64,000 nucleotides of DNA from Psammoneis japonica (GCA_008632985.1 QPGO01000057.1:124001-188000); one strand, 5' to 3'; shown: positions 4,657 to 60,716, counted from the stretch's first letter. The notes: a model not told the origin generated them from the letters alone. Numbers and translations: made by a program.

Positions 4657-4680
4657 TACATATCTCAAAGGAAGACATCA

Positions 4681-5469
4681 CTATACTGGTAGATGCCTGA
4701 TGTTGTGTTGGAGTACCTGGAAAGGCAGGGTCGGTTGTGCGTGAGGAGTCTCAGTCGTGACGCAATCACAGTCATCCTGCTGGATCCGAATGACCGTTTC
4801 GACATCGGACATTTGTGCAAGTGACCAAAAAAGACTCACGTCATTCAATTCTTCAAAGCCAACAATGCCGAGGCGGTGGCTGCGTGCCATTTTGCAGCCT
4901 CTGCAAGCTGCCCCCTTGTGGTGAACCCAGTCATGCCCAAGAGTTCCTTCAATCCACAACGGCCGATGGGTCCAGAGCATGCAGGTGCTGCACCTCCTCT
5001 CTGTGCTGGCAGGGGCCCAGCGGAAGCTCTGTGGAGATGGGCAGCCGCTCTGCTCTTCAACGCTGTCGTCGGCGTCTCATGTGAGCACAGCCCTCTTTGC
5101 CGCCTGGGCTATGCTGGGCCACTGACAATTGCAACCTGCATTCTCAAACAGCAGCACCAGCTCCACATCTTCTTGGCAAGTGGCTGGGTGGGCAAAACAC
5201 ACAGCATTGCCAGGCGCGGGCCAGCGGTTGTCAAAAAGCTGCTCTCCGTGCCTGCCAGACCTCAGACCTTGGCCTCTTTCTCCAAATGTCTGTTTTTTGC
5301 AAGCAGCATGGCTGAAATGTGCTGGACAGATGCTCTCATTCAGCATCTCCATGTGCCCCTGCTGCCCCTGCTCTCCAAATCTGCGGAGCCAGAGAGACCA
5401 AGCAGCTCAGCAGCCTTGTGCTGCGACGGCTGCAGCGCTGGCTGCAGAGCCAGGCTGGCCAGCCATTGT
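4681..5469 (-). pseudogene. Decayed ORF of unknown function inside TpA-depleted domain A
   Basis: One frame of about 260 codons (MAGQPGSAASAAAVAAQ...NIRHLPV) broken by two TGA stops. Tyr-free and Cys/His-rich. Confidence 0.35.
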
Positions 5470-5960
5470 AAGATTTTTTCACTCACATGCCACAATGGTG
5501 CACCCAATGACAAGTTGACAAGCTGTGCACTCAACAAGAAAATGCCCCAAGAGCACGAGAAACAAAACCAGCCATTCAGCAAGCTCTTGGCCAAGCAGAA
5601 ATTGTTTTTTTGTCTCATTGTTTGGCAAAGAAGCAGTTTCTTGTCTTTTTGCCTGAAGCACTTCTTCACAAATCCAGGTTGTCAAATTGTCACACTTGCC
5701 TTTCTTTCTCTGCTGGCTCTTGTCCAGCTGAAAAGCATTGTCAATCCTTGTGCCTGGGCAAAGGAGGCTCGTCATGTGCTGAGTTGCCATGCTTTTGGTC
5801 TTGTCTTTGTTGCTTTTTAATTCTGGCATGCAGATGAACCCACGAACACCTGGACATCGAGTCCATTGATGCTCTGAGGGTCCATCCAGGCCATTGACGA
5901 GTTTTCTGGTGGAATTGCAGTTGTAACGCACGACCAGCGCCTGAGGATGAATGTGACCCA
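4720..5960. other. TpA/CpG-depleted, TpG/CpA-rich domain A
   Basis: Only a handful of TA dinucleotides in about 1.2 kb; flanks are normal. Confidence 0.85.
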
Positions 5961-6152
5961 TGGGTTGTTTACAAGCAGAGTACCACAAAGTGGGATGCAG
6001 GATTCGATGAGTACAAGGATGCTCTATTAAGAGAGCTCGAAGAGGACTACGAAAGGGAGGCTGCGGCGCGTCGAGAAAAGCTAGAAGCGGCAGCAAATGC
6101 AAGGGCGGAGAAGATCGCTCGTCTGGAAGCAAGCCTCAAGGCCAAAAAGTAG
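5765..6152 (+). pseudogene. Partial duplicate of the last ABCF intron and exon
   Basis: Aligns to about 2850-3234 with indels and frameshifts. Part of a tandem duplication that also carries the GT11-like gene. Confidence 0.92.
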
Positions 6153-7614: not shown

Positions 7615-7899
7615 TATATCAGGGGAGGATAATGGTTTATGTTATGCGCGGTGAGTCGTAAGCAATGCAGCACTCGATCCGTCATCGGAGCACACCATGT
7701 TCAATGTTGCCGGCAACGCTTGGCCGGGTTCGCGGTTTGAATTCTGGCATTCTAATAAATCATGTCCGTATTATTTGAATATTTTCCAACGCTTGCCTTT
7801 ATTCAACTCTGAAGAAGTAGTTATAATGTCAGCATCAGTTTTCTTTGACGTCTGTCAGTGCCGGCGGATCTTTCGAAATGAATGTGCGACTTGATAAAA

Positions 7900-10550
7900 T
7901 CACCGTCACTGTTGTGTTTTGTGTTCCCGCATTTGCAGTTGTTGCAGTTTGTCTCTGATGCTTGGATGTGTGTTGAGCATGCTTTGCATGAAAGAGCAAG
8001 TCTCTGTGTTCCCACTCTCGGGCTGGTGTGTGGCATTCGTTTTGAAACTTTGGTGCCCCTCGCCCTGATGATGCTCCCCAATCACGTGCTCAGAGTGAGC
8101 CACGCTGCTGCAGCATTTTCAATCAGCATGAGAAAATGGGAAATTCCAGGAGCCAACAGTGACCCACACAGAGAAAAAATGGTGATGGTGTCAGGACAAC
8201 AAAAGTCTGTGTGAGAGAGAACCTCTGCCACCACTTTTTTGCAGCTGCGCGCTCCTTTTGCATTGTCGAACCACACAGTGAGACAAGCTTCTTTTCTGTG
8301 TCAACTTGCCACACCCACTTTGTGGCATTTTTGAGCTGTTGTTCAGTTGAGGTCATCATGTGCTTGGTCAACACAGCCCCTGCCAGTGGGCCTGTGAAAC
8401 TTCTCTTGTTTCTCTTCCAAGAAAGCAGCAAAGCAGCAGTCTCTGCAGCACTTCCTCACTTTTTTCTTCCTGGGCTGGTGTCAATCAGAGACAGCACTTC
8501 TTCTTTTGGGGCTTGCAACCACAGCACTCTGAACACCCTCATGTGCTCCTGCTGCACCACTTTTTTCTGCTTTTCTGCCCCGGCAGCAGGGGCAGAAGAT
8601 TGCTGAGCAAGCCGCAGCGCATCTTGAGCTGGAGCATTTCTTCTGCAGTTGTGACCAGCAACTCTCTTGATTGTGCAAGTCATGTTCTTTCTCTTGTTGT
8701 GCCCCAAACAACACCTTCCAAGTGCCTAAAAGGATGGCTTGATGGCACTGCATCATTGCCCAAAGTGTGCCAACACACTGGTGAGCAGGCAAGCTTGGTT
8801 GCAAAGCTCCTCATGTGATGTCTGCAAAAGCTTTTGAGCACACTTGTTGAGATGACTGGCTGCTGTCACATGATGGCCAATCCAGCCCTGCAGCAGCTGA
8901 CTCAACAGGAGGTCTCCACCTGGTGGGTCCAAGAAGTGGCAAGGAAGAAGTTTTGACAAGAACCTTGCTCTTGACTGTGTGGAGCAGTCATGCAGCCCGA
9001 GGAGCGCTTGAGGAGGTGGGTCATGAGAGCTCTTGTTGTGTGCCTTCCAGCTTGTTGGCAAGCACTGAGCTGCCAGCCAAGCATGCTGCATGGCAAGCCT
9101 GCACAAAGAAGTGCAAAATTCATCACATTGCAAGATGCACTTTTCTGACAAGAGAAAAAGGTGCCCATCAGTGAGCCCAAGATCATGAGCCAGATTTGTG
9201 TGACTGCTTCTTGTTGTGCACCATCACTCTGATGACATGCCAAAAATGTGCAGCTGGGGTCATCAGCAAATCTGCTGGCTTTCTTTGATCCTGACAGAGC
9301 AAACGCAGTGCTCACATTGGAGATTTCTTCTGTTTCTTGCTGTTTTGCCAGGTGCCAGGTGTGTGGCTGCCCCTTTGCCAAAGTTTTGGGATTGGGGTTT
9401 TTTTTCGGCATGTCTGTCATTCACAAAATGTTCATCATTCAAGTCATCATCTCCAATCTGTGAAGTGTTGGAAATGTTTTTTTTCATGGAGAGAACTCTG
9501 TCTCCCTTGTTTTGATCACATGGCTCAAGCTTTCCTTCTGAAGAGCAATGAAAGCTTGCCAGTGGTGGTGTGAGCTGCACACTCAGGAGTGCTGCCATTG
9601 ACCTCTGTTCAGACCAGCAGAGCAGGCTCTTTTCTTTTTTCTGCAGCCAGCCACCTCTGTGAGCCCTCACCCCCACAGTTTTGACTTTGCGACACCTGTT
9701 GAAATCAGCAAAACAACACTTGATGGTGCAAACAGCAGCCACTCTTTGTTGCTGTGTGGGGTTGTGCCAAAAGGTGGTGGGAATCTGATGTGATGTGAAG
9801 TCACTTTGGTTTCTCTGTGCTTTTTTCTTCTTCCTTCATGCTTGTGTCCAGCTTTTGCCACTTCTGTGCCTCCTGCAGTGTTCTTGTTGGTGGATTGAAT
9901 GTGTGGGGGATGACAGTTCTTTTCAATCAAGCAAAGAGCCAAAGAGCCTGGTTGGCAAAACAAGGGCAGGGTGAGGCAGCAAGAGGAGGCATGGAAAAGG
10001 CTGCAGAAGCGGGAGCAAAGAAAGGGCGCACAGCAAGACAGCACACGGGGCATTTCAAAGAAGGAGATGGGAGAGGTGTTGGTGCAAACAGCAGACAGAA
10101 ATCAAAGGGCATGGGCAGAGAGACAATGAAAAATGTTGCTGCCAAGAGTTGTGGTGGTCCGTGGGGAGGCAGTGGAGGAGCGGCAAGAAGAGCCAAAATG
10201 GTCAGCAGTGAGCTGAGGCCAGGCAAAGTCAGTGGAGAGGACAGAAGCACAGCAGATGGTGAAGTGAGAGCATGACAGAAGGCAATGCAGGAAGGGTCAG
10301 AGACTTGGAAAGCAGAGAAGTCAGACCAGGGGGGGGGGCTTGAGAGAGCAGGGGAGGAGGAGCCAAAAAGGAAGTGATGGAAGAAACAAAGAAGCCAAGA
10401 CAACCGAGGTGATCCATGGTGAAAGGCAGGGAGAAGATCCCGTCGTCATCATTGCGAGACTGAAAAGTGAGGGAGCCATTGGAAAAAGAGGCAGCAGGAC
10501 CAAGAAACTTTGACCTCTCGCTCGTGTGGTGTGCCTCAGTTTCTCGGAGG
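7900..10550. other. TpA/CpG-depleted domain B, probably decayed mobile DNA of unidentified type
   Basis: About one TA (CCTAAA near 8726) in 2.6 kb. No recognisable protein motif found. Confidence 0.85.
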
Positions 10551-10811
10551 CTTCGCTAGCTGGCCTGGAATGAAGGAATCTAGGGCCCTAATGAAACAAT
10601 TTGATCACGAAAAGACAAACACCCATGTAAGATAGACGGACGCAAGCAAAATAACCGCCGGTCAACAACAAAAAGACCGCGCAAACCGCAAACCGGAGAC
10701 CGCGAAGACGAAGAAGCCGATGGCCGGGCACTCCAACATTATCATCGCACCTACCGGCACTATTGACCACGACATCGATAACAGATCTGTTCCAGAATAG
10801 TGCACACCATC

Positions 10812-12206: not shown

Positions 12207-13260
12207 ATGGTCAACGATCGGCAACAACCACAACAACGCGAAGAATGGGCCCTGTCGTTTCACCAGCATCGAGCGTGGGGAAAAGGCAAGCGCAACAAGC
12301 CAAAAGGCGACGCCGACAACAATGTTGCGGTGGTGGTTAGATTTCTGGACAAAAAGGCCTTTCGATGATTTAGGCATGGGAATTTGGAGGCGTGTCCTCA
12401 GTTGAGGCTCACTCTTTTGCAGACACGACGATGATGCGCTCCATGCCATGATTGATTGGTGTCTTCACCTGAATTGAAGGCATTCAAGTGACTTTGTAAC
12501 TCATGAAGGATGATTCTCACAGTTGCAATGCCCTTGCCTTGGGAGGATATTTGATTCTCTTCAAAGTTGTCAAAATTGTCACTGACAAGCACTGCAAAAG
12601 ACAGCTTGTCATTGAAAACAGAACTCCAGTTGAAGCCAATGCCATGGGTGCCTTGATGACAAGCAAGGCAGCAAAGATTCTCAAGACCCAGTGCATCTGA
12701 CATGTGGGGCTGGTGGGCTGCTTACATTTTGTGCCTTTTCCATTTGAGCACATTGCTGCCGTGCACGAGGCTGGCATTTTGTTAAAAAGATCATCTCAAC
12801 CCCAGCCCCAAAACTCAATTTTACCAACAGAGAAGAGTGGACAAGGTTCTGTTCCAGCTTGATGTTTGCTTTCCCCTGCATTCTGCACACAAAGCAGAAA
12901 GGATGAACAGCAGCACCACACTGTCCCTGGCTGTCTCCTCATGTGAGCTGTGTGACCTCAGGGGACTTCCCAGCATTGTTGCTCAAATGGGGTGATGTAC
13001 AAACCACTTGCTCTTTGTTCAATCTTTCTGTCTGCAGTTCTTGCTGCTGAAGAGGGGGCTGCATCTTGAAAACATCATCCTTGGAAGGCTTTGGGAGAAA
13101 TCATGTCTTGAGCAAAGGCTCGCTCAAGCACTGCACGTGCCCAACATTTTGGACAATGTTGTCAACATGGGATGCTCTTGTGAAAAGGAATCCAAGAACA
13201 TGATGGTGTGTGGTCAGTGTGACACATGGTTTGGCACTGCAGCAATGGTCATGAGTTTCC
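12207..13260 (+). mobile_element. Probable Mutator/MULE-like transposase remnant with SWIM-like and PHD-like fingers
   Basis: EEWALSF...DNNVA, then GCLHFVPFPFEHIAAV (SWIM-like PCxH) and CSC...MMVCGQCDTWF (PHD-like), with stops and shifts. Confidence 0.4.
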
Positions 13261-14376
13261 AAGAAGAAGGGTTGGGAAAAGTGCCAAACAGTGTGCACAA
13301 TCAGACCAACTTGAAGCCACTGAACAAACACCCACTGAAATCTCTGCTGTGCCTGTTGCAAATAATTTGACATGCTTGGAGCTCAGAAATGTCACACAAC
13401 AATGGCAAACACTTTGGATGGCTGTTCAAACAGCTTTGCGCCATTTGTTTCTGAGTGCCAAAAACACAAAAAATGTTGCAGCCACTCAATCACATCAACC
13501 AAGTCACTTGCCTGGCTTGCAGCCACTGAAAAGTCAGTGCCACAATGCTGTGGTGCAGCAAGACAACATTTTGCAACACGAGCTCATCTTTCTTGCTGCA
13601 AATTGTTGCTCTCTCAGTGCCGCCATTTCTGCATGATGTTTTGCGGCTCTTTTTGCAAGTCACTGCCAGAGCAGACTGCATTGTCAGCATGGTTTGGCAA
13701 ATGGCCCTGTCATTGTGAGAACAATGGCTGAAAAGCATTCAGCCACACCACTTTCTGTTTTAGCTCATTTTCTGCTTCTTCTGTTGATTGCCAAATGGCA
13801 ACCATTTTTTTTTTCACCAGTGCACACCACTGTGAGGCTTTTTTGAAGTGCACCCAAGTGCTTGAAAATGACTTTGTCAAAAGGTGAGGAAGATCTGTCC
13901 CTCTTCTGAGAAATGATGAGACATGGAGCAACAGATGTGCTGCACCACCAGCTTTCCAAATGCCAAACCATCAAGCTGACAGCTTGTGCCCTCTCTCAGA
14001 CTTGGCAGCAGTTTGTCTGCCCAAAGTCAATTTCATGCCTTCCAATCACATGGCACTGCTTCTCTTGAGTTGTGGCTCTTGTGCATCTTGGGATGCAGCA
14101 GTGTGTTTTTAATGGCTTTGATGGTTGGGCACACTGCTGGAACAACTTGTTCGTGGTGACTCTTGTGCATAACAGAAGCTCAACTTGGAACTCAGTTGAG
14201 GTGCCTGTGGAGAGGCTTCTGCAAGAGGTGTGTTTGTGCACTTGATTCATTTCATGGCATTTTCGGTTCCTTTGGAAATGTGCTCTTGTTGTCTGATGTG
14301 ATTTGCACATCAAAATCACTTGGAAGCAGGCACCAGAAAAACTGTTGTTTGGCAAGAACCAAGAATTTTGTGCTCC

Positions 14377-14403
14377 CTGCTGCTGCTGCTGCTGCTGCTG
14401 CTG
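14377..14403. repeat. (CTG)n microsatellite
   Basis: About nine CTG units. Confidence 0.9.
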
Positions 14404-15593
14404 TTCCTCCTCCTCCATTTGAAGCTCCAGCAACTCCTCCTCAGCAGTCTTTGTGCACAACAACAACTTTGACAAGGGTGTGAAACCCTTCTGAGCCAAT
14501 CAAATGATCATCAACAAGCAAAGCTGGGATGATCTTAGCAGCAAGTTTGCACTTTAAAAATTGGACACAAAAGGGCTGCATCATCATGCCCCGCACTTTG
14601 CATGCTGTGATGACACAGACACACAGGATTCTGAAAAATCCCCAGAAAATGATGCAATTGAGGACAGCACGTGCATGCTTTGGTGTGCCACGACACATCT
14701 GCGTGCCATGCATGCAGACAGAATGATTCTTGCACTGCCAGGAATGATTTGGGTGTTGGCAGGGGCAACAGTCAAGTTTTGGTGCAATTTCCACCACCCT
14801 CTTGAACGGAAAAAATTCATTTCACAATGAAGCGCTGCTGCGGGGGGGCACAAAAACTCAGGAATCACCAATGTTGCTGTTCCGCCAGTTCATTAGCTCA
14901 AAGGGGGAACCCCACCACACACTTTTGCAAATGATTTCTCTCTCATTGTTGCGCACCACCATCGCCGTTGAGCAGAAAACACTCTTTGTCAATGCCAAAA
15001 ATGATGTGTTGTTTGAGTGTGACTTGCAGCCAAAGTAAAAAGAGGCGCTGCAGATGGCAACCAAGATTGCAGAATTTGCTTGCAATTCTCTGCAGCACCA
15101 GCATCATGCCACCATGGCCGGGTGCTTCTGCCACATGGTGGCTGGTGCCAAGAGCAAGGAGATGTCTCTCTTTGACCTGCTGCCCCTCAAACAAAAGAAA
15201 AAAACTGTTGCAGCACTTGACATTGTTCTTGAGATTTCTCACCTGCCTCCTGGACACGACCAGGCACCAGCGCCCAGTCTCTCTCTCGCACCTTGAACCT
15301 GAACTGCTGCAATTTTTCTTTGAAAATACACCCGCAAAACAGGCTGGCACAAACTTCAAACTCAACCGCCCCACCCTGCCTGCCTGCCGTGGCCTCCACC
15401 ACAGGCTCAGACATTCAACTCTGTGCTTTCCAGATGCAAGTACAGAGCTCAGACAAACGGGCGGAACATGCACCGACCCCAAAACGCACGCAACACGCAA
15501 CCAACCCGCATCATTCACTTCTCAAGGAGAAGCGATGTGCCGGTCAGAAGATGAGAGTTGCAATAGATGATGGCAGTGCAAGGCCACTGTGAC

Positions 15594-34821: not shown

Positions 34822-34879
34822 GGCACTGTGAAGCAGGGGCATGCTTGCTTGACAGACAAGTCGACGGCGACAGAGAGTG

Positions 34880-45549: not shown

Positions 45550-46221
45550 CTATTTTATGGCTATTCTGTACAATGAAATTCAGTGTTGCTTCGACAGAGC
45601 ACACTCCACTTGCTGCGCATGAAACATTCGAACGCACTTTCCCACGTCACACACTGGCACCAGACATTGCGGGCCAGTTTTTGGCCAGGACAATGAAGCA
45701 GAGCAAAACAAGACATCTTGGCATTGATAGAACCACAAGTTCTCAGAATCACCATTCAGCAATTCATCTTGTTTCAATTTGCTGGGAAAGCCATTTGGTG
45801 GATGGCGACAAGGGCTTCCACTGCGAACCCCGAAGCATGCCCCGTTTAGATGCGCCGCCAGCAGCAGAGTGACAACAACCGTACAATGGCTCACAAGTAA
45901 AAACAGTGCCATTAAAATGCAACTGACATCTGAAGAGAGTGTAAGACTCAGGTGATGTTTGCAATGGCAGACATGCAGTTCTTGCGCCTCTCATCAAACG
46001 GGTGGGGATCACGCACCCAAAGCATGGTCGACACCCCAATGCTTCACAACGCCACGGTGCATGGCGGCAAAAGGTCACTCAAAGTAGACTCAAGCTCCAG
46101 CGTCTTTGTGTGCATGGCAAAACTTTCTTTGAAACAGCCCCTCTGTCTCGAACGTTGTTTCCGGTCAAGATTGTCCTGGCCGATTCCGACATCCGGATGT
46201 GAGGTGGAACAAGCTTGTTGC

Positions 46222-47345
46222 TGACACGTCTCTCTTCCTCCATAAAATTAAACAGCGGTGGAAGGGCTTCTCCCCAGGGAAGACGGGTGCCTTCCAATCA
46301 AAGCTTGTCAAAAAGGCGTGAGCACACCCTTCAAGAGGCTTGATGCGATTGTCCAGAGTGTGCGCCAGAGTGGATGCTGTGCATTCCATTGCTTCTTCCG
46401 GCATCCTGTTTCGAAATGCCTTTTCCCACACTGACATCCCTTTGTCTGGGGAAACTTGAATTCAATGTAGTTGGAATTCATCGAGCTGATCTCCTTGCAT
46501 GTTTGGGGTTCCTAGAACCTTGATGATCTCTGCAAGCTGGTCGACACCCGAGTGGCCAGTGGGAAATGGAGTTGTCCCAGCAGCAGCTCCACTCCAACAC
46601 ACCCCTCCGACCAAATGTCAATGGCGGTGGTGCACTCTGTCGACCCGAAAATGAGTTCGGGTGCACGGCAGCATCTCAAGCAAATGTGTGATGCATTGGG
46701 TTCCCCACGAACAAGCCTCTTTGCACTCCCAAAGTCACACAGCTTTTAAGCTGCTGGTTTCTTGGGTCACCAGCAAATTCTGCAGCTTGATGTTGCGGTG
46801 GCAAATCCCCAAAGAGAGGACATGTGCCAGCGCTCGGGAGAGCTGGTGCAGGCAGAGCTTGACACACAAAGCAACGGGAGAGTGGCTTCTTGGATCTCTG
46901 ATGGGTCCACCCAACTGAGTGCACAGTTTCAGGGACATGCTCCAAAACCAGATTGAGGCACAGCTCATTGGGTTTTTGCCCTGCAAACGAAGAAGTCCAA
47001 CCGCGTGACTTCAGCGCTGCACACAAGAACAAACATGCCGCCACTTTTGCAAATCGAACAAAATCAACAAATCAACACAGGGCCCTGCGTGAAAGTAAAA
47101 GCAGTGCTTGAGTGCAACAATGTTGGAACGGGGATCCACAACAAGTTGACGCATGATCTGCAGCTCTCTGTTCTTGAAGCGCTTGTCATGAAGCACCTTT
47201 TCAATGGCGACAACATCTCCTGTTTCAACAACAGCCACTTGAAACACCACACCGAAGGACCCATTCCGACAACTCTTTCAGTTGAATGTGAAATCTGTTG
47301 CTCTCCCCCAGCCGCTTTCAAAGAAACAATTGATTTTGCTCGAGT
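46222..47345 (-). pseudogene. GSK3: GSK3/shaggy-like kinase pseudogene
   Basis: [85 protein letters not shown]. Frameshifted. Confidence 0.93.
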
Positions 47346-47940
47346 GGCACCATTGGACCTCACACAGTGTGACTGATTCTTCTCCTGAAATTTTGCTTGA
47401 TGCATCATTTTGGAGATGCAGTCACATGCCACACCAACGAGACAAAAGAGCACTCGCTTTTTCAACTTGTTCTTGTTGCTCTTTTTCTCCATCTGCAATG
47501 CTGGACCACTTGTTGCTTCAGCTGCAAGCACCTTGCAGTTTTGCATCTCGGATCGTTTCCATGCCCATTGTCTGGATGCAGGTGTGAGACTGGAGAGCTC
47601 TCTTGCTCAAGTGGCATGGCATGTGGCATGTGGCATGGGCTTGCCATCATTGCGTTGTTTTTTGTGTGTTTTTGTGGTGGGGGAACTGCCTCTGCCGGCA
47701 CCATGCCGTCACACCCAAAATTCCACCCAAGTGGCAAAAAAAAAGTTTTCTGCTGGAAAGTGGAACTCTCGCATGCAGAAATGTCAATGCGGAGACAGCA
47801 TCTTCTAAAGAATTCTGCCGCACTGTGCATCCACTGTTTGTTCCACTCAGGTGCAGTGGAAGGCACAGCAGAATTTTCGGAGCCAAAAATTCTGCCCTGC
47901 GCGTGCAGTGTGCATGCAGACAAAAGGTCATTTTTGTCAT

Positions 47941-48308
47941 GCCCTTTGTGACATTTAAAGGCTGCAACACGTCGCCGTGATGCGCTGGCTCTTGTTGGTG
48001 GCTGTGTGTTGCACTCCTCCCCATGTGTCACACGTCCATGCGGCTCTTTACTGGCACACACTGACACTGCACGGTTTTGGCGGAACAGTGTGGGTACGTG
48101 CAAAGGAACACACAGAACTGCACAGAGTTTTGCGCGTTCGACAGTGATCAATGTTGCTGCAGACAACTCCCACTCAGGGTTTCGAACCCCTGGCCTCCTG
48201 CCTGATGGTTGCGATGAACCACTCCGCTGTGAACGCCCTTTGTGACATTTAAAGGCTGCAACACGTCGCCGTGATGCATTGACTCTCGTCAGCAGCTGTG
48301 TGTTGCAC
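47941..48308 (+). repeat. 74-bp direct repeat (47941-48014 and 48235-48308)
   Basis: GCCCTTTGTGACATTTAAAGGCTGCAACACGTCGCCGTGATGC identical in both copies. Confidence 0.9.
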
Positions 48309-49007
48309 GCACCCCTTTCGCGCGATCTAAACCATCTGTCCTTGGTGAGGTCGGGTGCGACGGCAGGAACAAAAAAAATGCTCGAAAGTTCTGCTCGTCT
48401 CAATGCGGCATCTCAACCATGAGCGTTGCCGCGTGCAACCCCAGCAACTGCACCAATGCCAACTGCATCTGTGGTGGCATGGCAGTCAGCACTCACAGGC
48501 GTCCTGAGTGCAGCAGAAACCTTCACACTTCTTGTGGGAAAGCAGACGAACGACTTGCACTGCTTTCAACTTTGACAAGCTCCAAAGCACCCACTTGAGA
48601 TTGCTGTTGTGAGTTTCATGTTTAAATGGCACTGAACAGTTGCGTTGGCCTAAGAAACAATCAGCACCTTGCTGCACTTCCACCAGCTTGACAAGAAAAC
48701 AAGCTGCTCCCCAGCACGGAAGGCACGACCAAGGGTTGCTTGATCTTAAAACAGATTGTTCCGCATCCTTGGCTTGAGACACATTTTTTAACAACTGTTT
48801 GGTCCACAATGATCTTGGCACTTTTGCTGCCATGGGTGCTGAGTGGACCTGCGAGGGACAATGAGACTGGAGAAACAGTGAGGAACAAACTCTGCCACAC
48901 TCGACAATCATCAAACGCCCAAAACATGAGATGTGCACAACAAACAAACATTTCCATCACACATTTGACACCATCATTGGCAATTTTTTTTGTTCTCACC
49001 TTTGCAG

Positions 49008-49201
49008 TGTCAGCCCACCTGCACATGTCGTGTGATGGACAGACTGTGCATGGATGATGACCGGACCATCTAGATTGACGAGCAGATCTCTCTGAGATCT
49101 GCTTCTCACTTTCTCATCTGCCAGTGCTCATGTTGTCACAGTCCTGGCACTTCAGGGAGTCTTTCACACCTCTGTCATCATTGACCTTCGGCACTCTGTC
49201 A
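49008..49201 (+). repeat. 5' LTR
   Basis: Gap-free alignment with 55374-55567. Confidence 0.95.
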
Positions 49202-51480
49202 GGTTGTGGCCTTGTGCTGTGCCACAGACCTCTGTGCCAAGCTTTCCGTTTTGATTCATTTGTTTTGTGAGCCGATCGAGCAAGCCTCATCTCTTGTTCC
49301 CGGAAGGATTTTTATCTCGCTTTCCCGGCATTTTTCACGCTCATAGAAACACACCAGATTTCTGCACGTGCATGACCAAAAATGTTTTCACGAAGTAAAA
49401 CCATGGCGTCTCCCGACCTTGCAAAGGCCGCTCCCAAGTCTGTCACAGAGATCTGTCATGAGTTCCAATGACAGGATTTGAACAGGATTTGGGTGCGCGC
49501 GACATGTCGCGCGCTGTTTAGTTTACCGCGCACAGTTTTGTGTGCTTCAGTTTTGCGCGTTCGTGCGCGATGCAGTTTGCTTTCGAGCCACAAGGCTCAC
49601 AAGAACAATGACAGCAGCCCGATTGTGCCGACTTGCACGTCTTTCGTCTCTGAGTGGAGACTCATCTGCTGTTTAGACAGCAGCAAGGAGTCATTGTTTG
49701 AATTCTTGCCATTTGCTTTCAATTTCTGTCAGATTGACAGTCTTGCTCATTGTCAACCCATTGAGCAACCGCCATTGTCGTCGTTGATTTACCGACGACG
49801 CTGTTCCATTCTGTGTGGACCTCCGTGTGTGCTCTACGTACATCGGCAAGTCTGCGCGCATTCAATGCCAGGCATCGGCAGGAAGTTAACGTCGCCGTCA
49901 AGTCTCCTTGCCGCTGGATGTCTGGATTGATTGTGCTGCCTTTTGTCGCTGAAGACACACATTCAACGGTCATGTCCAAGTCCATCCTTGATCCTCATCC
50001 CTTGACACACCCATTCAACGGTTAACGGTCAAGAACCCCACACATTCAAGGATCTTCGTTGCTGAAGACATGCACATGTGCACATCTTCACGGCCAAGGA
50101 CTTGAACCCACTCTTTGGACTGCGGCTTTGCCACCACTCTACAAGCACACCAAGTCTGTTGCACCTGATCTACCCCGGACCACTGGTGCTCTGCAGTTCC
50201 ACCAGGTCCACGAGGACGACTGTGAGAGCAAGCAGCCATGATTGCAGCCCACGTTGGGGCAAGGGTGTTTTCCCGCGTTTGTTCGTTCGTCCACAGCACC
50301 TGACGCCTGCGTCAACTGGCCAGCCTGATCGAGAAATCCAACCGATGTAAAACAAGAACGGTTCAGGGGTCTTGTCCACCTCTGGTCAGCTCACCTGCAG
50401 GGGTTTGCAACCCGCTGCTCTGCTCGCAAGCAACCCAAAGCGCCACCAGCTGCGGGTTCGGACGTGCCGGCACAACTCTGTGGACCGGACAGGAAGTTTA
50501 GCACTTGACAACAAATGGGACAGCACACCCCGGCGACTTCTGATTTTTTAGGATGGTTCAAGATTTCAAGTCAAGTCCATTTCAAGCCAAGTTCCAAGTC
50601 AAAACTCTGAGTCAAGATCATGCTCTAGATTGGCTCCTGTCTTTTGTTTCTACTGCACCGTCCTCCGTCATGGTTCTCACGCGACAGCAACAAACCGAAA
50701 GCTTCAAATGCATTCTAGGCACTGTGCTCAATCAAGACAATGACAGCCCTCTTTGTTCTGCCCTGTCCATCAATGGGATTGAATCGTGTGAGGAATTGTT
50801 CACGTTCTCACCCACCCAAATTGATGCCCTCACTTGCAGAGACGGCGCCAATGCAGTGCCTTTGCCACGGACCCACAGAAACCTCCTAGCAGCTTTGATC
50901 AGCTTCTGCTTTGTCAAAGTTTGCAACGGTGATGATGTGACCAATGAACCCCAGTTGCTCACACCCGACGAATTTCGCAACTGCCGCCTTGGTCCGGACT
51001 GCTTGACCTCTCTAGCCACTGGCGCAGCACCCTCTGCACCTGTGCCGAGTCCCTTGCCATCCAAACCAGGTGAACCCAGTGCCATTTTGACACCAGCCTT
51101 GCACTGTGCCGAAACTCAGGTGTCCCCTAGAAGTGGTGTCAGCCGCGCCCCGCATGTCTTGACCAACCCGCCTGCAAGCAACCTCGGCCCAGTGCAGGAT
51201 TGCAGCCCTTGCGCAGGCCCGCACTTCAAGACCAGTTGGGACACTCCACCCATGGCTTCCAAAGCTGCAGTCTTTGCACCCCGCAAACCATGTGCTGCCA
51301 ACCTCCACATGTTGACCGCTGTCACCCTTCACAGTCTTCGTTTGGGAAGTGATGGAGATGACAACTTGCTTCTCGCATCTCCTGATGGGGAGCCTCCTTT
51401 TCCCGTCATTGAATCTGTTCACAACAGTTCAACCGGTTCATCAGATGGGGAGTTCAGGACATCCAAGCAGCTTCGTTGTC

Positions 51481-52245
51481 TTTGGATCCTCCAAGCATCG
51501 CACCACGAGACGAGGCCTCCTGATCGGATGCCTCAAGTCTCGCACCTCAAGACTGGGCCTCCTGATTGGATGCCTCAAGTCTCGTGCCTCAAGACTGGGC
51601 CTCCTGGTTGGATCCTCCAAGTCTCGCACCTCGAGACTGGGCCTCCTGATTGGATGCCCCAAGTCTTGTACCTCGAGACCAGGTCTCCTGATTGGATGTC
51701 CCAAGTGTCGCACCTCGAGACCAGGCCTCCTGATTGGATGCCTCAAGTCTCGTGCCTCGAGACTGGGCCTCCTGGTTGGATCCCCCAAGTCTCGTACCTC
51801 GAGACCAGGCCTCCTGATCAGATGCCTCAAGTCTCGTACATCGAGACTGGGCCTCCTGATCGGATGCCCCAAGTCTTGTGCCTTGAGACCAGGCCTCCCA
51901 ACTGGACTCTCCACGTCTCGTGCCTCGAGACCAGGCCTCCCAATTGGATCCTCCACGTCTCGCACCTCAAGACTCGGCCTCCGGATTGGATCCCTCAATT
52001 CTTGCGCCACGAGACCCGGCCTCCTGATTGGATCCCCCAAGTCTCGCACCTCAAGACTTGGCCTCCTGATTGGATCCCCGAAGACTCGTGTCACAAGACT
52101 GGCAAGTCCTTTTGGATCCCAGAAGTCTTGCAGCACGGGACTGGTTGCCCCAATCAGACATCTGCAGCCCTGCATCACAAGATGTCTTGCTCCAATCCGA
52201 TCCCTGAAGGCTTGCACCTTGAGACTCGTTTCTCCAATTGGATCA
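51481..52245 (+). repeat. 42-bp tandem array, about 18 units, inside the LTR element
   Basis: Unit reads ET(G/R)PPD(W/R)MPQVS(Y/H/C)L. Confidence 0.97.
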
Positions 52246-55200
52246 GTCTCTCAGGAGATGCAGCTGAGCTTGCAATCGGATTGGTGGAACACAAGACCAC
52301 CGCTTGTGCCTTTGAACTCATGCTTGCTCTGTTCCCCAAGTCGTGCAAACACCATGCCACCCTGCACGAGCACTGCTCTGTTTTTCTGGCAGCAGCCCAG
52401 TGTGGCAACTGTTCCAAGAACCAACAGACGGCCATCAGTCTTTACGACCTTTGCTCAGGAAGTGAAGGCGATGTCAACTTGTTTGCATTGTCCTGCGATG
52501 TTGCCCCGCCATTCAACATTGTCAACCAGAGACTCATCTGCCATTTAGACAGCAGCAAGGAGTCATTGTTTGAATTCTTGCCATTTGCCTTCAATTTCTG
52601 TCATCCAAGCACATGGCACTCCACCACACGTCCATGCGTCCCTGAACAGGCTGCACGCGGATGCCACATTGGATCTGGATCTGTTCTTCAACGATCCAGA
52701 ACACACTTGGCCCAAGAAGAATTTTGTGGACTCATTCCATGAGTTTCTCATAAATCAAGCGATTCCACCTCACACGGTGGATCCTGTGGACATGCAGTCC
52801 ATCAAGACGATTGTGGATGAAGCTCGTTTTTGCGTTGTGGACCCTGCCAAGTCTCACGCGATTCGTTTGATGCCTGAAGGTCTCTCAACCATGATCAAGT
52901 TGAATCTTCAGCAACACGAGCAATTTCTCTACATTCGTGTGTCAACGCACCATGTGCACTTCAATCCTGATGTGACATGGAATTACAGAGATTGGAAAGA
53001 GTTTTCTCTGTCCCCACACACATCCAAACAAGCTCACGTGGCTCCACAGTCATCGAGTGTGAATCCTTCGTTGATGTGCATGGACCATTTCACAACAACA
53101 TCGCGTCATGTTGTGCACAACCACACTCGACAACTGCAAAGCATTGTGGAGGCACTCTTGCGTGTGATGCACCCCAGTGTCGACCTCCACAAGAACATCT
53201 GCCTCATCCAGCGACGAGCATGAATTCCTCGTTGATTGGTGTCTGCGATTCCGTCACAACCGGGCGTGGTCCTTCATCAGCAACTGCGCCACTCCATGCA
53301 AACACAACCATGCATCCTGGAGGCACTGACATGCATCTTCCTTCCAATTGTGTGCCACATGCAAAACAAGGAGCTCTTGTGCCTCTTTCAATGACGAGTG
53401 CACCTCTTCCCTCTACAAGCATTCATGATCTTGTTGATGTGTCATGCAACTCCTCATTGGGGTCTGCATCATCCATTGTGCCTGCCACTTTGTCTTCTGG
53501 AGAATCTGCTGCACCTGTCATGTCTGTGGATCAGGGTGTGACTCCTGACATCAAGGCCACTGGGGAGATTGAAATTGGTTCTCGTGTTTGGGTTCGAGAG
53601 CCCGGTTCCCGTCGCTCCAAGTTGCACCCCGTCCCAAAGAAGGGCATTTTCCTTGGTCATTCATCTGACACCAACAAGCACGTCCTGTGGCAGGATCCTG
53701 AAAACTCTCAGATCAAGATGGACACGAATGTGCACTTCAACGAGGGCATGGACGGACCTCCTCGTGCAAAGGATCAACGCCATCCAGACCTTTCATCTTC
53801 CGGTGACCGTGACGGATGTGAGAAAGCCTCTTCACTCTTTTCCTCACCTCCGGCCTCGTCTTTGACTGATCATGCATTTGAAGATTCCAAGATGGACGCC
53901 GCCACCGAGTCCTCCAGCCAAGATGATGCAGATGTGACTCAAGATGAAGGTGCAATCTTAACGGGTGCTCGGATTGATCCTGTGAATGCCACTGCACTGG
54001 ATGTCAAGTCTCCCATGTCTGTTGTGGTTCCTGCGAGCAAGACATCTGCAATTGTTGGCACCGGTTCACTTGCATTGTCCATCGGATTGGTGGCATTTCC
54101 CGCCGACCTCCATGCTTGCCTGCTCAAGACCCCAAAGTTTTTTGTGTCTGGCAACCCCATTGTTTCATGCAATGGGGCTCGCTTCAATCCATTGGATGGA
54201 TCACACTGCATTGCCAAGGTCACCCTTGAGCTGTTTGCTGCCTCTGTGGCACCGTCGCATGATGCGAATGATGCCTGTGGATGCAGCCAGAGCTCTGTTG
54301 GTTGGTTGTCAGGTTACTTCGTCCTTGGATTTTTGGCTCGGCCGTCGTTAATTTCGGATGTGCGATGCTGCCATTCCTTCCATTGTCCGAACAAGACCAA
54401 CAGAAGCGGGGTTGTTGTGAAAGAGGGCCACCGAGTCTCACTGCCTTCCGCTGTGCCATCTCTTTCCTCCGTTGTCAGGACCATTGTCACGTCTGTTTGC
54501 ACTTTTCATGGTGCTCCAGACCTGCCCACCATCGCTGATGATGATCCTTTGTTTTCTTGTCAAAGGAGGGAGCAACATTGTGCAGAAGAACTGTGCAAGA
54601 TTGACAACCACACCAACTCTTCCAGTGTGTTGCCTTCTTCCTTTGCTGTCAAGACCGCTGTGGTGTTGAGCGGTGTTTTTCCTGGTGGTCCCGACCTGTC
54701 GACTGTCCCCGACGATGACCCTGCATTTTTAGATCAGGGGAGGGATTCCCACAGCACAGAGGAAGCATGTCAGGCTGTTGAGAACATCACATTCAATCAA
54801 GAAACCGTGCTTGATGACCATCATTTGAAGGCCTTGCGATGCTCACTTGCGATGCGTCACTGTTCTTCCGACGTTGAGTGACTGCACGATGCATTTTGTT
54901 TGTCCAATGTGTTCTTCAGGGGTGACACATCCGGTGGCAGAAATGTTGTTTTGTCAGGTGGATTGCTGTTGCTTCTTTATTGCCGCGCTGTCCGCCATGG
55001 TGGATTTGCATTTTCTGGCTCCATCCCTTCCGATGAGATTTGGTGACAGCATGACTTGCCAGAATGTCTTTCTGCGATCGATTGCTTGTTGATTGACAAA
55101 TTCATTTCTTTGGTGCAAGACTCGATTTGTCTTCAAGATTTGTTGGAAACTGCCTTTGATGTTTTTGTCGAAGACTCCGTTGGATCAGCACATGTGCCCA

Positions 55201-55373
55201 GCTGCCTTTGGAGATTTTTTGGAGATGTCATTGCCCTGTGCTGTGTGGTTCCTTTACGATTGCGAGTTGAGCCTGGACACTTTGTTTTGTTGTCCGGTCT
55301 GTTTGCATCATCCCTGTTCTTTGTTTTGATCTGCGCTGCTCTCCATGTTGAGACATTGCAGATCAGGGGAGGG

Positions 55374-55567
55374 TGTCAGCCTGCCTGTGCATGTCGCATG
55401 ATGGACAGACTGCACATGGATGATGACTGGACCATCTAGATTGACGAGCAGATCTCTCTGAGATCTGCTTCTCACTTTCTCATCTACTGGAACTCGTGTC
55501 ATCACAGTCCTGGTGCTTTGGAGAGTCTTTCATGCCTCTGTCATCATTGACCTTCAGTGTTCTGTCA
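55374..55567 (+). repeat. 3' LTR
   Basis: Preceded by the PPT at 55365-55373 and followed by the TSD. Confidence 0.95.
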
Positions 55568-56488
55568 TGCAGTCCGAAGCCAAGCTTGATTGTGAAAGCT
55601 GCTGTGTCAGATGCGGCAGTCCTGTCAGTGTCCTCTCTGGGAGCAAAAGTCGTGAAACACCCAAGAGGTGAGGAGCAGCAACAAATCCACTGCAAGCATC
55701 ATTTTTTTTCACAGTCACACCAGTCTGCAGCGGTGTTCATGCCGTTGCTGCAATGGGTGCCGGGTGGACCTGTGAGCGACCACAAAACAACAGAAAAAGT
55801 GAGAGAAAAGCTGTGCTCCAGAAAAAAGCATCAAACGCCCAAAAGACGGGCTTTGCAATGAGCACAAACACAACCATGAGATTTTGAATGGTTCCTTCAG
55901 CGAGCATTGGCATTCTCACCTTTGTCCTCAAATTGCCAAGCAGAAATGTCATCGCTGCTGCTGCCGACGCGATGGCGCCGCATGTTTCCTCTCTTGCAGC
56001 AAAAGTCATCAAACACCCAAAAGGCAAGGGCAAGCAAAAAATCCAAAGCAAGCATTGTTTTTCTCACAATCGCATCAGTCAACATTGGCATTCATGCCTT
56101 TGCTGCAATGGGTGCCGAGTGGAACTGCGGGCGTTCAAAGGCCATGGTTCGTCTTGGCGTTTTTTTTTTGGCTTCAACTCCTCTCGTGGGTTTGCGCAGG
56201 TTGATCACCAGCACGTGGCTTCTGCACTGATGGCCATGGCTTGGTCTTCTTCCCCATGGGATGAGCACTGCTCTCCACAGGGTAGAACTGAGGGCAGATT
56301 TTTTTGGATGCATTGGCCCGGCAGTGTTTCGGAAGGAAGCAGCCAACTTTTGCAACTCGGGACTGCGAGAGATGCGAATCGTGCGAAACTTGGTCCATCC
56401 ACAGATGCGTGAAGAAAATGAGCACTGGTGCTGCGCTGCACAGCACCGGCGCTCGTCAGCACACATCACACATCATCAAAGTCACATC

Positions 56489-58700
56489 ATGTCATCACTG
56501 TTCAACACGGCTCGGAGCCACCAAGACTCTGTTTTGTCACCTGACCACTGGGTGTCAACAGACACGGTCTCACCACTGAGTGAGACACAAAACACCAAGT
56601 GTGGCAAGTGTTGCTGCTGTCACCAATCCATGCGCCAAGAGAAAAAGTCTTGGCCAACTGTTGCATCCACCGGCAACAGCGGCACCACAGTGACAAGTGC
56701 CGCAAGTGCTGCAGCAGACATTCTCGCGAGGGCAGATGGAACACAGCTTTCCCGAGGGTCGGCAATCAAACTTTTTGAGTGGCATGAAAAAGAAAATGAT
56801 GAGAGTCTCTCTTTGACAAAATTGGGCACTCTGAATGACGAGGAAGCGAAAGGCGCAAGGCCATCATGAAGAGCTTGATCAGTTTGTCTTGGTGGATGAA
56901 AAATGCGCCTGTTCTGCAACAAAATGACACTGGGAAAGCCATGGGTGAGCGATCCACAAAACAACATTTTTCAAGCATCAAAGAGACAATGAAGAACAAA
57001 ACTCTGGCACTGGAAACATGGGACAACCACGAGGAAAATTGGTGCACCGACCTGTGAGACAGCCTGGGCAAGGGTAAAAAGCACAGCCTTCTCAAAGGCA
57101 AAGAAGAATTCAAAGAAACAACCTGTGAGGCACTTCTAATTTGCAATTCTCTTAAAAAGCTGTGAGTTGGCCATAGAATGTGGCATGAGATGCTTGGTGT
57201 TGATCTCGAATCAATCTGTAAAAATGTCATTCGTCAAGACAAGCCGGGTGCATGTCGTGATTGTGCAAAGCTCATGCTCACGTCTCTTGCAGTTGGCCGT
57301 GGTGGAGAAGTTACGTTTCTGTGCTGGAATGAGTTCCAGTGGGATGATTTGTTTCTTGCGGTGGAAGGTGCACGGACCAGAGTGAAGACCTTGTCGCAGC
57401 AGATGTTGCATTTCCAAGGGCATCATGATGGGTTCCTGTGCTGCATCCATTGGACCCTGGGAGCATTCTTTGCTGTGGAAGATGGCTTGTGCCGGCATGA
57501 CAGCTTGGACAAGAAAACAAAGCTGGCAAACAAGGCATTGTTCCCAGATCTTTGGTGGATTTCTGATGCAGCTGCAGCGGTGCAACTTGCAAAATCAACA
57601 AAGGAAAACTCGGACGCCCAGATGCATGTGTTCAATTCATCTCGGAGCATTTGCGTTGGCTCCAACACTGAGCTTTCAATTCATCCAGACATTGCACCAG
57701 AGGAGCAACGTCTTGCTGGTGGTTTCTTGGCTGGTGACAACATTGAGCTGCACACCAGAATGAATCCTTTGGCTGGAATGGTGCCGGCCAATGTGCTTGC
57801 GGGATTTGAGCATCCACGAGACATGGTGCATCCAGCAAGTCTGGATGCTCTTGTGGGCCATGTCACAGCAGAGGAAATGGACTGACTTGTGTCATGTCTG
57901 TGCCTCATGTTGGTTTCTTTATTTCAACCGGACGGCCGTCTTTGACCTCTCCTGCACAATGTGACAACCGCTAAGTTGGCAATGAAGTGCCCTGTTGTGC
58001 ACAAGGAGTTTGGCCCTGGGAATTGATTGGTGTGCAAATTGGTGTCCTCTGTTGTAAAAGCCAGGTTGGCAATGTCTCCAGGGGGAGGCACACTGCAAAT
58101 TGGTCATGTGGGCGGGCATCATTGACAAGGCCCACGAATCGGAAAACAGTCGGGTGCCAGATGCAGCAGACACAACTTTGACAGATGCAATCAACAAGCA
58201 GTCATGTGTGATCCAAAAACTTGTGCAGTTGAATTTGAAACTGCAGCAGAAACAAGCTCTTGTTGGATCTGAAGTGTCTGGACTGAAGACATTGACAACA
58301 ACCACATTCTTGTCGTCTGTTGTCACTGCGCTGAAGGCAGCGTTCTGTGGGCGTGGGCAGCTGAGGAGCCAGAAACAAACAACAACACTGAAGAACCCGT
58401 TGTGGAACAGGAATGTGCTCACAATGCCAGAGCTGACAAGATTTTGACAGCATCCTGGCTGCAGTTGCACATGAAACAGAGCATGCAGCATTCACCAACT
58501 TGACAAAAAGACAAGCTTGTCCAGCCTGCGGATGACAATGACTGGTGTCGGTGGCAGGTGCAATGAGTGTTGTGAAGCCAACGGGTGCATCCACCACAAA
58601 GGTGGGAAGAGGAGTCCTGCAGAGATGTCAACAGAGGGAGGAACAGGTGTCTTGACTTCATTCTTCTCAAGAATGAAGAATGCAGTGTCACCAGCATGAG
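56489..58700 (+). mobile_element. Decayed tyrosine-recombinase (Crypton-like) element
   Basis: AVGRGGEV (catalytic R), VKT, SSRSICVG (xxxR box with R->C), IELHTR (expected Y->H), ANVLAGF. Internal TGA stops. Confidence 0.6.
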
Positions 58701-60716
58701 CAAAGAAGCACCGCACAAGCACTGAATGATGGTGAATTGTTGCGCATTGAATGGCGCATTGTGTGGATGTGCTTTGGGTGCCAGCAGGTTTTGTTCTTTC
58801 AATTGCAGGAACTGTCATGCATCCCTCACCACCACAATCCTTGTGAGAACAAAGCAACAGAAGAAAAACCGTGCAAGCAACAAATGACAAACAACATGCA
58901 GTCATGTTGTTCTCCACTTGCATGCCAACTCTCGTGTGTCCCCTCTCATTGTGGCACTTCCAGTCAATGTTGTTTTAATTCTGCTGCTGTGCAAACTCTT
59001 GTGCACCCCCCCCTCTCTACCACAATCCTCGTTGAACAAAGAAAGGGAAGAAACACAGCACAAGCACTGAATGACACATTGCACAGAGGTGCACAACAGC
59101 AATTGCTGTTCTTTTGCTGATTCCACACAAACTCTTGTGCACCCCTCTCCACCACAATCATCATCAAAAATCCCTTTTCTGTGCTGAGCTTCACAACTTG
59201 GCAATCATCATCATGCACATGCTTGCTGAGTGAATCAAGTGGAAACTTGCAAAGGTTGTCAATGTCTGCAACTCTAAAAATGTTTCCCCTCTGACTGCCT
59301 TGTTTTGGTGGAGGAAACAAAAAACATGCAGTCACCAACATGAACAGACTCGCATTGGCGCAAAAGCAGGGCAGAGACACTTTGTGCCAGGCACAAAGGT
59401 TGCGCACGAGTTTGGCAAACTCTGCCTGCAGCTTTTTTGATGGGTTGCAGACCTGGTCATGTTCCAACCAGCCCTGTCACATTGCTGTGAGCGTGGCCTG
59501 CCACGGGTGCAGAAGCTTGTGCTGTTCTGGCCTGCCATGAATGGATCGGACACTTCAAAAGAAAAAGCTGGTTTCTTCTTTTTCTTCTGTGTCGACCGCT
59601 GCTTTTTCTTCCCAGTGGGTCTTGAAACTGAGGCAATGGCAACCAAAGAAGGATTGTTGCTGCTTTGAGCAGACGGGTTCCAGTCCCAGGTGGGACTCCG
59701 TGTGACATTGGGCCCGCAGAATTCTGCGTGTGAGCTCCACAGCAAATTTGCACTGCAACGAAAATGTGAATGATCGCCAACAGAAAAAGAGGCAATTTTA
59801 CGAACGCATCTCCTCCTCCACACTTGGAGCACATCATTGACAGTTTGCCCGGGTGCATTCCACCGACATCAAAGAACACACCCAGCGCATTTTTATTCTC
59901 ACAAATGTTGAAAATAGAAAGCCTTTGGCTTCGCAAAATGGGGAGCATGAAACAATTTTGTAGAATGTGACATGCAGAAATGTGCATGCGCGACACACGA
60001 CGCGATCCAAAAAACCATTGATGTCACAGTGCAGCAGCACGAGGTCCCACCCAGAGCTGGAACGCGTCAGCAACAAAATGACACTTGATGACGATGGCGA
60101 CAATGAACACAAAAATCAACCACCTCATTGACTTTCTGCAACACAGCACTCATCCCACAATGCATCACAGTGATGCATTTGACCTTGGAACAAACTTGTC
60201 ATTGGTCAACATGCTGCAGCTCCATCTCGTGTTGAAGAACATGCTCGATGAAGTCGTCAACTCGATGAAGGTGTGTCAGCGTCGGTGAGGCATCACCACT
60301 CATTTTCCGCGAAAAGTTCATGGTCGAGTTGAAGATTCCTTCGGCGGTGAGGCCGAACTCTCGCGAGCAATTTAGATTCGAACTTGGACATGAACATGTG
60401 GCCGCCGCTGGCGGCATCAGGAATCTTTCGCGGCCGCGAAAGTTTCGACGCCTTGGGCCCTTCAGACGGACGGAAGACGGACGTTTCTTTTGTTCTGACG
60501 TCATGCATCACTATTGGTCATTGCTACTGTACTCTACTGTAGCTGCCGTAGCTGACGTGGCAGGCGCAGGCGCAGGCGGGCCAAAGCGTGACTGAAAACA
60601 GCACTGCCAACTAAAATCTACACGTGTTATTTCTTGCTCATTTTTTTGTCTCATTTCACGTCTTCATTGCATACTTTTACTGTTACTCAGAGTACCAAAT
60701 AAACCACGAAATAACG

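Follow-up and report, generated by a model that had tools for sequence, protein, structure and literature searches.

Introduction

The closest described counterpart of the DNA analyzed here is the TpA hypermutation of the alga Bigelowiella natans. In mutation-accumulation lines of this species 231 out of 302 nuclear mutations were located in two silent integrated viral regions, and 230 out of these 231 were A>G or T>C changes, all of them at TpA, with a rate of approximately 6e-7 per site and generation (Mettrop et al., bioRxiv 10.64898/2026.01.13.699255). This preprint also describes 124 clusters of windows that are depleted in TA and enriched in CpA+TpG, and it names an ADAT2-like candidate enzyme. 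For diatoms, a literature search returned no report of TpA hypermutation. Further systems to be compared are fungal repeat-induced point mutation (RIP), the decay of CpG by deamination of 5-methylcytosine (5mC), and the deaminases of the ADAR and APOBEC types. The enzymes of RIP are cytosine methyltransferase-like, and diatom transposons are known to be methylated at CpG.

Here we report on a stretch of 64,000 nucleotides from the diatom Psammoneis japonica (GCA_008632985.1, QPGO01000057.1:124001-188000), in the following called the window (64 kb, 49% G+C), in which five blocks have lost nearly all TA dinucleotides. All 1447 TA positions of the window were mapped, and dinucleotide statistics were calculated along it in a sliding manner. 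We consider it likely that the blocks carry real and heritable mutations that arose in place, caused by a mutator that is limited to domains and converts A:T to G:C at TpA, together with a slower decay of CpG.

Dinucleotide composition and borders of the blocks

The five blocks (Table 1) sum up to 30,216 bp and leave 33,784 bp as the remainder of the window. TA occurs 108 times inside the blocks (observed/expected ratio, o/e, of 0.06) compared to 1329 times outside (o/e 0.58). The o/e of CG is 0.42 in the blocks and 1.00 outside, and TG and CA are raised to 1.71 and 1.67 from 1.17 and 1.13, respectively. Both strands are affected to the same extent (3167 TG versus 3217 CA), and the G+C content is slightly higher in the blocks (0.502 versus 0.478 outside). 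Expressed as the share of positions, TA drops from 3.93% outside to 0.36% inside and CG from 5.70% to 2.62%, while TG and CA together rise from 14.4% to 21.1%. The bookkeeping is nearly even: the loss of TA (3.6 points) and CG (3.1 points) amounts to 6.7 points, and the gain of TG+CA to 6.8 points.

The longest runs without any TA measure 2379, 1830, 1332, 1272 and 1147 bp. At the TA frequency found outside the blocks the probability of meeting no TA across 2379 bp is e^-93.6. The transitions into and out of the blocks are abrupt. At the left border at position 4715 there are 36 TA in the preceding 586 bp and one in the following 600 bp, at the left border at 7896 there are 29 in the preceding 596 bp and none in the following 600 bp, and at the right border at 40603 the last 600 bp are free of TA and the 600 bp beginning there contain 25. 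The borders are less than 100 bp wide and lie in intergenic DNA beside intact genes. The footprint is discrete with sharp edges, and what it shows is saturation relative to the flanks. A preliminary description of this DNA had claimed five TA-poor, CG-low and TG/CA-rich blocks of about 30 kb with sharp edges, and this is confirmed by the counts of dinucleotides as well as by those at the borders.

The sub-blocks vary chiefly in CpG, with CG o/e values from 0.11 to 0.60. In all five blocks the loss of TA exceeds the loss of CpG; the ratio of the negative logarithms of retention (TA/CG) is approximately 3-4 in four of the five and approximately 1.2 in block 3. This pattern, with CpG as the main variable between sub-blocks, points to two processes that run at different rates.

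The older, unrecognizable part of block 4 contains an internal duplication (38355-38720 versus 39200-39571, and 37913-38045 versus 38760-38885). Its copies share 65% of their nucleotides and 83-85% in a purine/pyrimidine alphabet, and their divergence consists mostly of transitions. In the same transition-blind alphabet, a self-comparison did not uncover any homology of block 1 to block 2, nor among blocks 2, 3 and 4.

The few TA that survive in the blocks are not distributed evenly over their flanking contexts. Retention is highest in TTAA (0.40), followed by CTAA and CTAG (approximately 0.20), GTAA (0.16), CTAC and GTAC (0.07-0.08), ATAA and ATAG (0.03-0.05) and ATAC (0.013), and it is zero in ATAT (0 of 84 in the expected class). 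Diffuse damage would not be expected to produce such a bias, which speaks for a putative enzyme that prefers certain sequences.

Direction of the changes

The copia-like retroelement in block 5 permits two comparisons in which the direction of change can be read. Its two long terminal repeats (LTRs) show 29 mismatches over their 196 sites, of which 28 are transitions and one is a transversion, so that in the purine/pyrimidine alphabet the LTRs agree at 195 out of 196 positions. Among the mismatches are ten adjacent doubles of the CA/TG type and four single CA/CG, CG/TG or TA/TG differences. Such doubles are predicted if an ancestral TA (or CG) was converted independently, to TG in one LTR and to CA in the other. 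As the LTRs of an element are identical at insertion, the changes must postdate the integration.

A tandem array of 42-bp units inside the element provides an internal test, for which the spectrum of 14 units was polarized against the consensus of the array. At TpA, A>G is found in 10 out of 28 and T>C in 13 out of 28 cases, i.e. 23 out of 28 TA sites are converted. Elsewhere in the array A>G occurs at 2 out of 84 other A and T>C at 8 out of 112 other T. At CpG, C>T and G>A are each seen in 4 out of 28 cases. Of 27 changes at TA positions, 23 are A>G or T>C. The first TA column of the array now reads CA six times, TG five times, TA three times and CG once, the second one TG six times, CA five times and TA not at all; the CpG columns show 12 CG and 3 TG in one case, and 9 CG, 5 CA and 1 TG in the other. 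Both directions of conversion are found within tens of bases, in the LTRs as well as in the array units.

A tandem duplication of 1.8 kb outside the blocks (2862-4661 versus 5781-7619) served as a control. Its 249 mismatches divide into 135 transitions and 114 transversions and include only 3 CA/TG doubles. The copies have 84% identity, normal TA content and open reading frames (ORFs) without a Pfam family; block 1 follows the first copy and block 2 the second.

Evidence from public reads for a second form

Read evidence was available from one public sample of one study (runs X1, X2 and X3), and the word depth of contigs given in the following is not a copy number. Three contigs of run X1 with a length of 726, 877 and 715 bp (word depth 64-71) match the window within block 4, with no difference over 33534-34259, one over 36886-37762 and none over 38570-39284. 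On these contigs TG and CA stand at 74:85, 108:106 and 66:97, and more than one third of these dinucleotides are surplus. The TG or CA state of neighboring sites is independent, with a concordance of 0.51-0.55 compared to an expected 0.50, and a test for strand-coordinated runs of TG or CA in the blocks found none. As both types are mixed on exactly matching contigs, the conversions must have affected both strands of one molecule.

The same run contains another version of this locus, in the following the second form, at a depth of 62-67; it is approximately 10% divergent (77 differences and 5 gaps in 726 bp; 65 differences in 715 bp). Among the differences listed, a small part of the total, 12 rows representing 11 sites fall into 31737-32221. 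At six of these sites the second form has TA and at three CG, and the remaining two are a CA to TG double and one other change. At least over 31737-32221, the second form is much less changed. With their similar depths the two forms are compatible with the haplotypes of a diploid, and the second form is probably the other allele. Together with the LTR pair and the tandem array, the second form provides the third polarized comparison in support of the proposed direction, namely TA to TG/CA in addition to CG to TG/CA. The excess of A>G at TpA that the preliminary description had singled out as the point to check is borne out by the array, with 10 out of 28 at TpA compared to 2 out of 84 at other A.

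Among the listed places in 31116-32221 there are eight at which X1 shows only the other letter, and in seven of these eight cases a TG or CA of the window stands against TA or CG in the reads. Three of the seven sites (31116, 31128 and 31611) are located outside of block 4, at a distance of up to 620 bp. The lineage of the window may carry extra conversions compared to the sequenced sample, or short contigs may be missing from the comparison.

Run X2 is filed as “DNA?” and was read by us as RNA. A 4.3-kb contig of the second form in this run omits a GT..AG intron of the neighboring hydrolase gene, which restores its frame to 409 codons, and X2 is therefore regarded as RNA. It follows that the second form is transcribed, including the subtilase region of block 4, where the spliced contig omits 101 bases at an intron-like insert. 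The kinase region of block 5 is likewise represented by an X2 contig over 45893-46977 with 99 differences in 1085 positions. There is almost no X2 coverage of 35670-40338 and 49010-51000, and the window's own letters are absent from the X2 contigs at 31116-32221; neither observation is evidence of silence.

Genes and elements inside and outside the blocks

The targets of the process are mixed. They comprise the copia-like element and a RusA-like remnant, but also copies of a subtilase and a kinase gene, and much of the content is unrecognizable. Among ORFs of the blocks, taken from stop to stop, 3 out of 140 and 6 out of 106 had a Pfam match in two scans. Besides a spurious one, the matches are subtilase pieces, one methyltransferase bit, three kinase pieces, a RusA-like piece and an SH3 domain of a retroviral-type integrase. 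A search of 59 block ORFs against PHROG yielded nothing beyond the RusA-like piece, and neither Pfam nor PHROG found a recognizable protein in blocks 2 and 3. All recognizable intact genes lie outside of the blocks, i.e. ABC-F, UDP-glucuronate decarboxylase, exostosin, MutS, aminotransferase, MFS, WD40, hydrolase and radical SAM. The earlier impression of broken sequences inside and intact genes outside therefore holds. The UDP-glucuronate decarboxylase gene (10782-11981) is intact in a normal island of 2 kb between blocks 2 and 3, and its best named relatives are from the diatoms Thalassiosira, Skeletonema and Asterionellopsis with 75-84% identity, as suits a diatom origin.

The subtilase pseudogene illustrates how an ordinary gene was affected. 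Its tblastn alignment to two homologues of 1018 residues each (P0121 and P0122) extends across 968 columns with 36% identity and never leaves one reading frame. Its 924 codons include seven in-frame TGA, one Tyr, 30 Cys and 26 His, and an intron-like insert of approximately 27 codons is still present. Of the 27 Tyr of the homologue, seven are aligned to His, two to Cys, seven to Phe and one to Tyr; as a control, an intact gene outside of the blocks has Tyr at 12 out of 13 Tyr positions of its homologue. The preservation of one frame, the TGA stops and the loss of Tyr indicate that this gene was inactivated by point changes alone. A protein search with the second form of the subtilase yielded just two distant homologues with 49-53% identity.

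Table 1. Positions of the blocks and of the elements and gene remnants located in them.
Feature	Position	Strand	Remarks
TA-free block 1	4715..5818		2 TA (o/e 0.03), CG o/e 0.40, TG 1.62, CA 1.70
TA-free block 2	7896..10557		1 TA (o/e 0.01), CG o/e 0.19; ends 225 bp before intact UDP-glucuronate decarboxylase
TA-free block 3	12549..15327		12 TA (o/e 0.06), CG o/e 0.17; begins 568 bp past intact decarboxylase
TA-free block 4	31737..40603		gene-bearing part 31737-35900, CG o/e 0.56; older unrecognizable part 35901-40603, CG o/e 0.11
TA-poor block 5	45570..60373		80 TA (o/e 0.09), CG o/e 0.56; kinase pseudogene, copia-like LTR element and unrecognizable sequence
Subtilase (Peptidase_S8) pseudogene	31924..34695	-	Pfam E 1.3e-10 and 1.2e-06
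Methyltransferase-like fragment	34925..35527	-	Methyltransf_23, E 1.1e-05, below curated cut-off
Protein kinase pseudogene, three pieces	46515..47277	-	Pkinase E 3e-12, 5.1e-05 and 4.4e-04 in three ORFs
Copia-like LTR retroelement	49006..55567	+	196-bp LTRs at 49006-49201 and 55372-55567
42-bp tandem array, 14.5 units	51482..52089	+	inside copia-like element; internal polarized test
RusA-like Holliday-junction resolvase remnant	58967..59476	-	PF05866 E 1.6e-07; phrog_140 E 2.2e-09

The coding evidence for the copia-like element is an SH3_retrovirus match (E 5.5e-09) in the ORF 52971-54878. In X1 the summed word depth over 47676-51000, which is not a copy number, is 45,000-117,600 with a peak of approximately 117,600 in the bin 49677-50343. 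This very high depth assigns both the element and its left-hand neighboring sequence to repeat families of great abundance. Metagenomes were scanned with the ORF of the element, in search of relatives, and with a 24-base word of the LTR, and neither scan found anything. The RusA-like remnant in block 5 may descend from an inserted viral or bacterial sequence.

Two observations concern sequences outside of the blocks. The MutS homologue is divided between an ORF at 17724-20468, which covers domains III and IV and the first part of V, and another at 20489-21013, which covers the rest of V; a short intron or a frame change would be the simplest reason for this split. To the left of block 5, the region 43007-45674 contains an ORF of 637 codons (43636-45549, minus strand) without a Pfam family and with an internal 294-bp repeat. 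Its summed word depth is approximately 1300-1960 in X1 and 400-2000 in X2, compared to approximately 130 in neighboring genes, and the region may represent a multi-copy expressed family with normal TA.

Proposed mechanism

The direction of the changes, their specificity for a dinucleotide, the action after insertion and on both strands without coordinated runs, the sharp intergenic borders and the independence of duplication are plain from the data. In the model that we favor, the process would convert A:T to G:C at 5'-TpA-3', striking single sites on one strand or the other until hardly any TpA is left. As TpA is self-complementary, each site would end as TpG or CpA with equal chance. The mutator would act on duplex DNA after insertion and within sharply delimited domains, and in the same domains CpG would be turned into TpG or CpA approximately 3-4 times slower, as expected from 5mC deamination. 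On this haplotype the domains would cover the transposon, old unrecognizable sequence and neighboring ordinary genes, and the latter would be made pseudogenes by point changes alone.

In analogy to what has been proposed for B. natans, the agent could be a DNA-acting adenine deaminase, which turns deoxyadenosine into deoxyinosine that is read as G. A hint towards its targeting arises from the borders, which are located in intergenic spacers beside intact genes, and from the inclusion of single genes beside transposons. Both suggest that the process may be guided by silent chromatin and not by sequence. It might serve as an irreversible genome defense.

Several points weigh against this model. 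X1 may be the source sample of the window itself, with a sequencing platform that is not on record, and it then lends the letters of the window no independent support. The statement that the second form is less mutated is based on the 11 sites among the differences listed, and this form could be a paralogue rather than the other allele. Pfam scans of the ORFs of the window detected no deaminase domain. The division into a TpA mutator and CpG decay is assumed rather than shown, and the sequence alone does not tell an A>G on one strand apart from a T>C on its partner. Finally, the diatom blocks have lost CpG, and the accessible part of the B. natans preprint contains no mention of CpG, diatoms or heterozygosity.

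Alternative explanations

The chemistry could be directed at thymine instead: in silent DNA a TET/JBP-like or another enzyme would modify the T of TpA, which would then be replicated or repaired as C without any adenine deamination. Since TpA is palindromic, a T>C change is identical to A>G on the other strand in the comparisons of LTRs and array units, and the symmetric ratio of TG to CA is compatible with both routes. Nothing in the sequence favors the thymine route, and the sole mechanism proposed in print for this signature is ADAT2-like adenine deamination, which is itself a prediction (10.64898/2026.01.13.699255). We regard the thymine route as unlikely.

It is very improbable, in our estimation, that the blocks are an artefact of base calling or library preparation, with modified bases in silent DNA being misread and the true sequence retaining TA and CG. 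The platform of the assembly, like that of X1, is not on record, and a modification specific to one allele would imitate an allele-specific difference. Such misreading predicts strand-specific errors, with all TG coming from one strand and all CA from the other; the matching contigs, however, hold both, and so do the LTRs and the array units within tens of bases. To have the two outcomes on a single strand, the changes must be fixed mutations. Moreover, contigs with a word depth of approximately 65 equal the window over 715-877 bp. The preliminary description had named reads with TA and CG at these sites as the mark of an artefact. Contigs from the public run X1 carry the letters of the window, with TG-type and CA-type sites mixed on each of them, and the idea of real mutations is not refuted by this comparison.

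A dedicated mutator could be dispensed with if the blocks were foreign or old DNA with an intrinsically low TA content, or if CpG decay were combined with biased gene conversion or relaxed repair. TA is indeed mildly under-represented throughout the window, as the o/e of 0.58 outside the blocks shows, and CpG decay is ordinary in methylated transposons. Against this stand the polarized comparisons, which show a change in place at TA sites and by which both biased gene conversion and foreign composition were rejected. Biased gene conversion is not specific for TpA and would not remove CpG, and a further tenfold loss of TA with borders of less than 100 bp beside intact genes is unlike a background process. 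We give this explanation hardly any credence.

ADAR-like A-to-I editing of transposon transcripts, fixed by reverse transcription and re-insertion, would be attractive insofar as ADAR favors a 5' U and hyper-edits repeats, according to the preprint (10.64898/2026.01.13.699255). It was rejected on three grounds and is in our opinion extremely improbable. The two LTRs of one insertion disagree at 29 of 196 sites, which places the changes after integration; an ordinary gene was struck in place with its intron-like insert retained; and both strands are equally hit, with TG close to CA and neighboring sites at chance concordance.

A RIP-like process that is triggered by duplication and recognizes repeats by homology would suit the high-copy LTR family in block 5, but was ruled out and has a practically negligible probability, as the change runs in the opposite direction (TA is lost and CA gained), the 1.8-kb duplication outside of the blocks was spared with a normal spectrum, and the summed word depth of block 4, not to be taken as copy number, is 108-172 and similar to that of its flanks.

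Implications

A wider interpretation, which we offer tentatively and consider possible but rather doubtful, is that the TpA editor is an old defense guided by chromatin domains and common to the supergroup of stramenopiles, alveolates and Rhizaria (SAR), perhaps beyond. In this diatom it would have completed the erasure of TA in silenced domains and spread from transposons into ordinary genes on one haplotype, while a less changed and probably allelic form is transcribed. If this is true, it would amount to an irreversible, allele-specific killing of genes in a diploid alga, and the flanking preference, with ATAT as the most and TTAA as the least sensitive context, could be used to identify the enzyme. 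If the process is the same as in B. natans, TpA-targeted A:T>G:C editing of DNA would occur in two distant algal lineages and would be a candidate for a widespread eukaryotic genome defense, the mirror image of fungal RIP. Since some diatoms are transformable model species, knock-outs would offer a way to test both the enzyme and the targeting signal.

For the analysis of such genomes the blocks have practical consequences. TA-free blocks mislead gene prediction, as TGA is the only stop codon left and long false ORFs appear. Homology searches weaken as Tyr codons vanish. The dating of transposons by LTR divergence is thrown off, the LTRs of the copia-like element being 15% divergent with all but one change being transitions, and estimates of heterozygosity are inflated by the divergence of approximately 10% between the two forms in the blocks.

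Comparison with known systems

Fungal RIP resembles the process in the diatom blocks in being an irreversible, domain-wise hypermutation by transitions that kills transposons and neighboring genes and leaves a dinucleotide footprint usable as an index. In contrast, RIP turns CpA into TpA, by which TA is created and the GC content lowered, whereas the diatom blocks lose TA and gain slightly in GC. RIP also needs a duplication, and the duplication in the diatom window was spared.

CpG decay by 5mC deamination accounts for the CG to TG/CA share of the changes, and the lower CG o/e in older sequence, which in block 4 amounts to 0.11 as against 0.56 in the gene-bearing part, is the pattern of residual CG expected from a decay driven by 5mC, the methylation itself being presumed. 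It cannot, however, remove TA. ADAR and APOBEC likewise produce clusters of transitions in retroelements by deamination, which are read as defense. These enzymes act on RNA or on single-stranded intermediates before integration and leave strand-coordinated clusters, whereas the changes in the diatom took place after integration, on both strands and without coordination.

The preliminary description had assumed the hypermutation of TpA to TpG/CpA to be novel, but it had already been measured in B. natans (10.64898/2026.01.13.699255). The diatom blocks and the B. natans regions have in common A:T>G:C transitions at TpA on either strand, a footprint in discrete regions, a depletion of TA that is coupled to a gain of CpA+TpG, and an enzyme that is proposed by inference only. 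Domains of the transposon type are enriched among the TA-depleted sequences of B. natans, and the diatom blocks hold a copia-like element beside copies of ordinary genes.

The two systems differ in lineage, P. japonica being a diatom (stramenopile) and B. natans a chlorarachniophyte (Rhizaria). They also differ in extent: the depletion is near saturation in the diatom (TA o/e 0.01-0.11) compared to a Rho of 0.45 in the mutating viral region that the preprint reports. The diatom blocks include ordinary host genes with a transcribed and less changed second form, and the rate was measured in B. natans and can only be inferred here. With these differences in mind, the signature of the diatom blocks, judged by sequence, is a match to the TpA hypermutation of B. 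natans, a kind of process first described in 2026.

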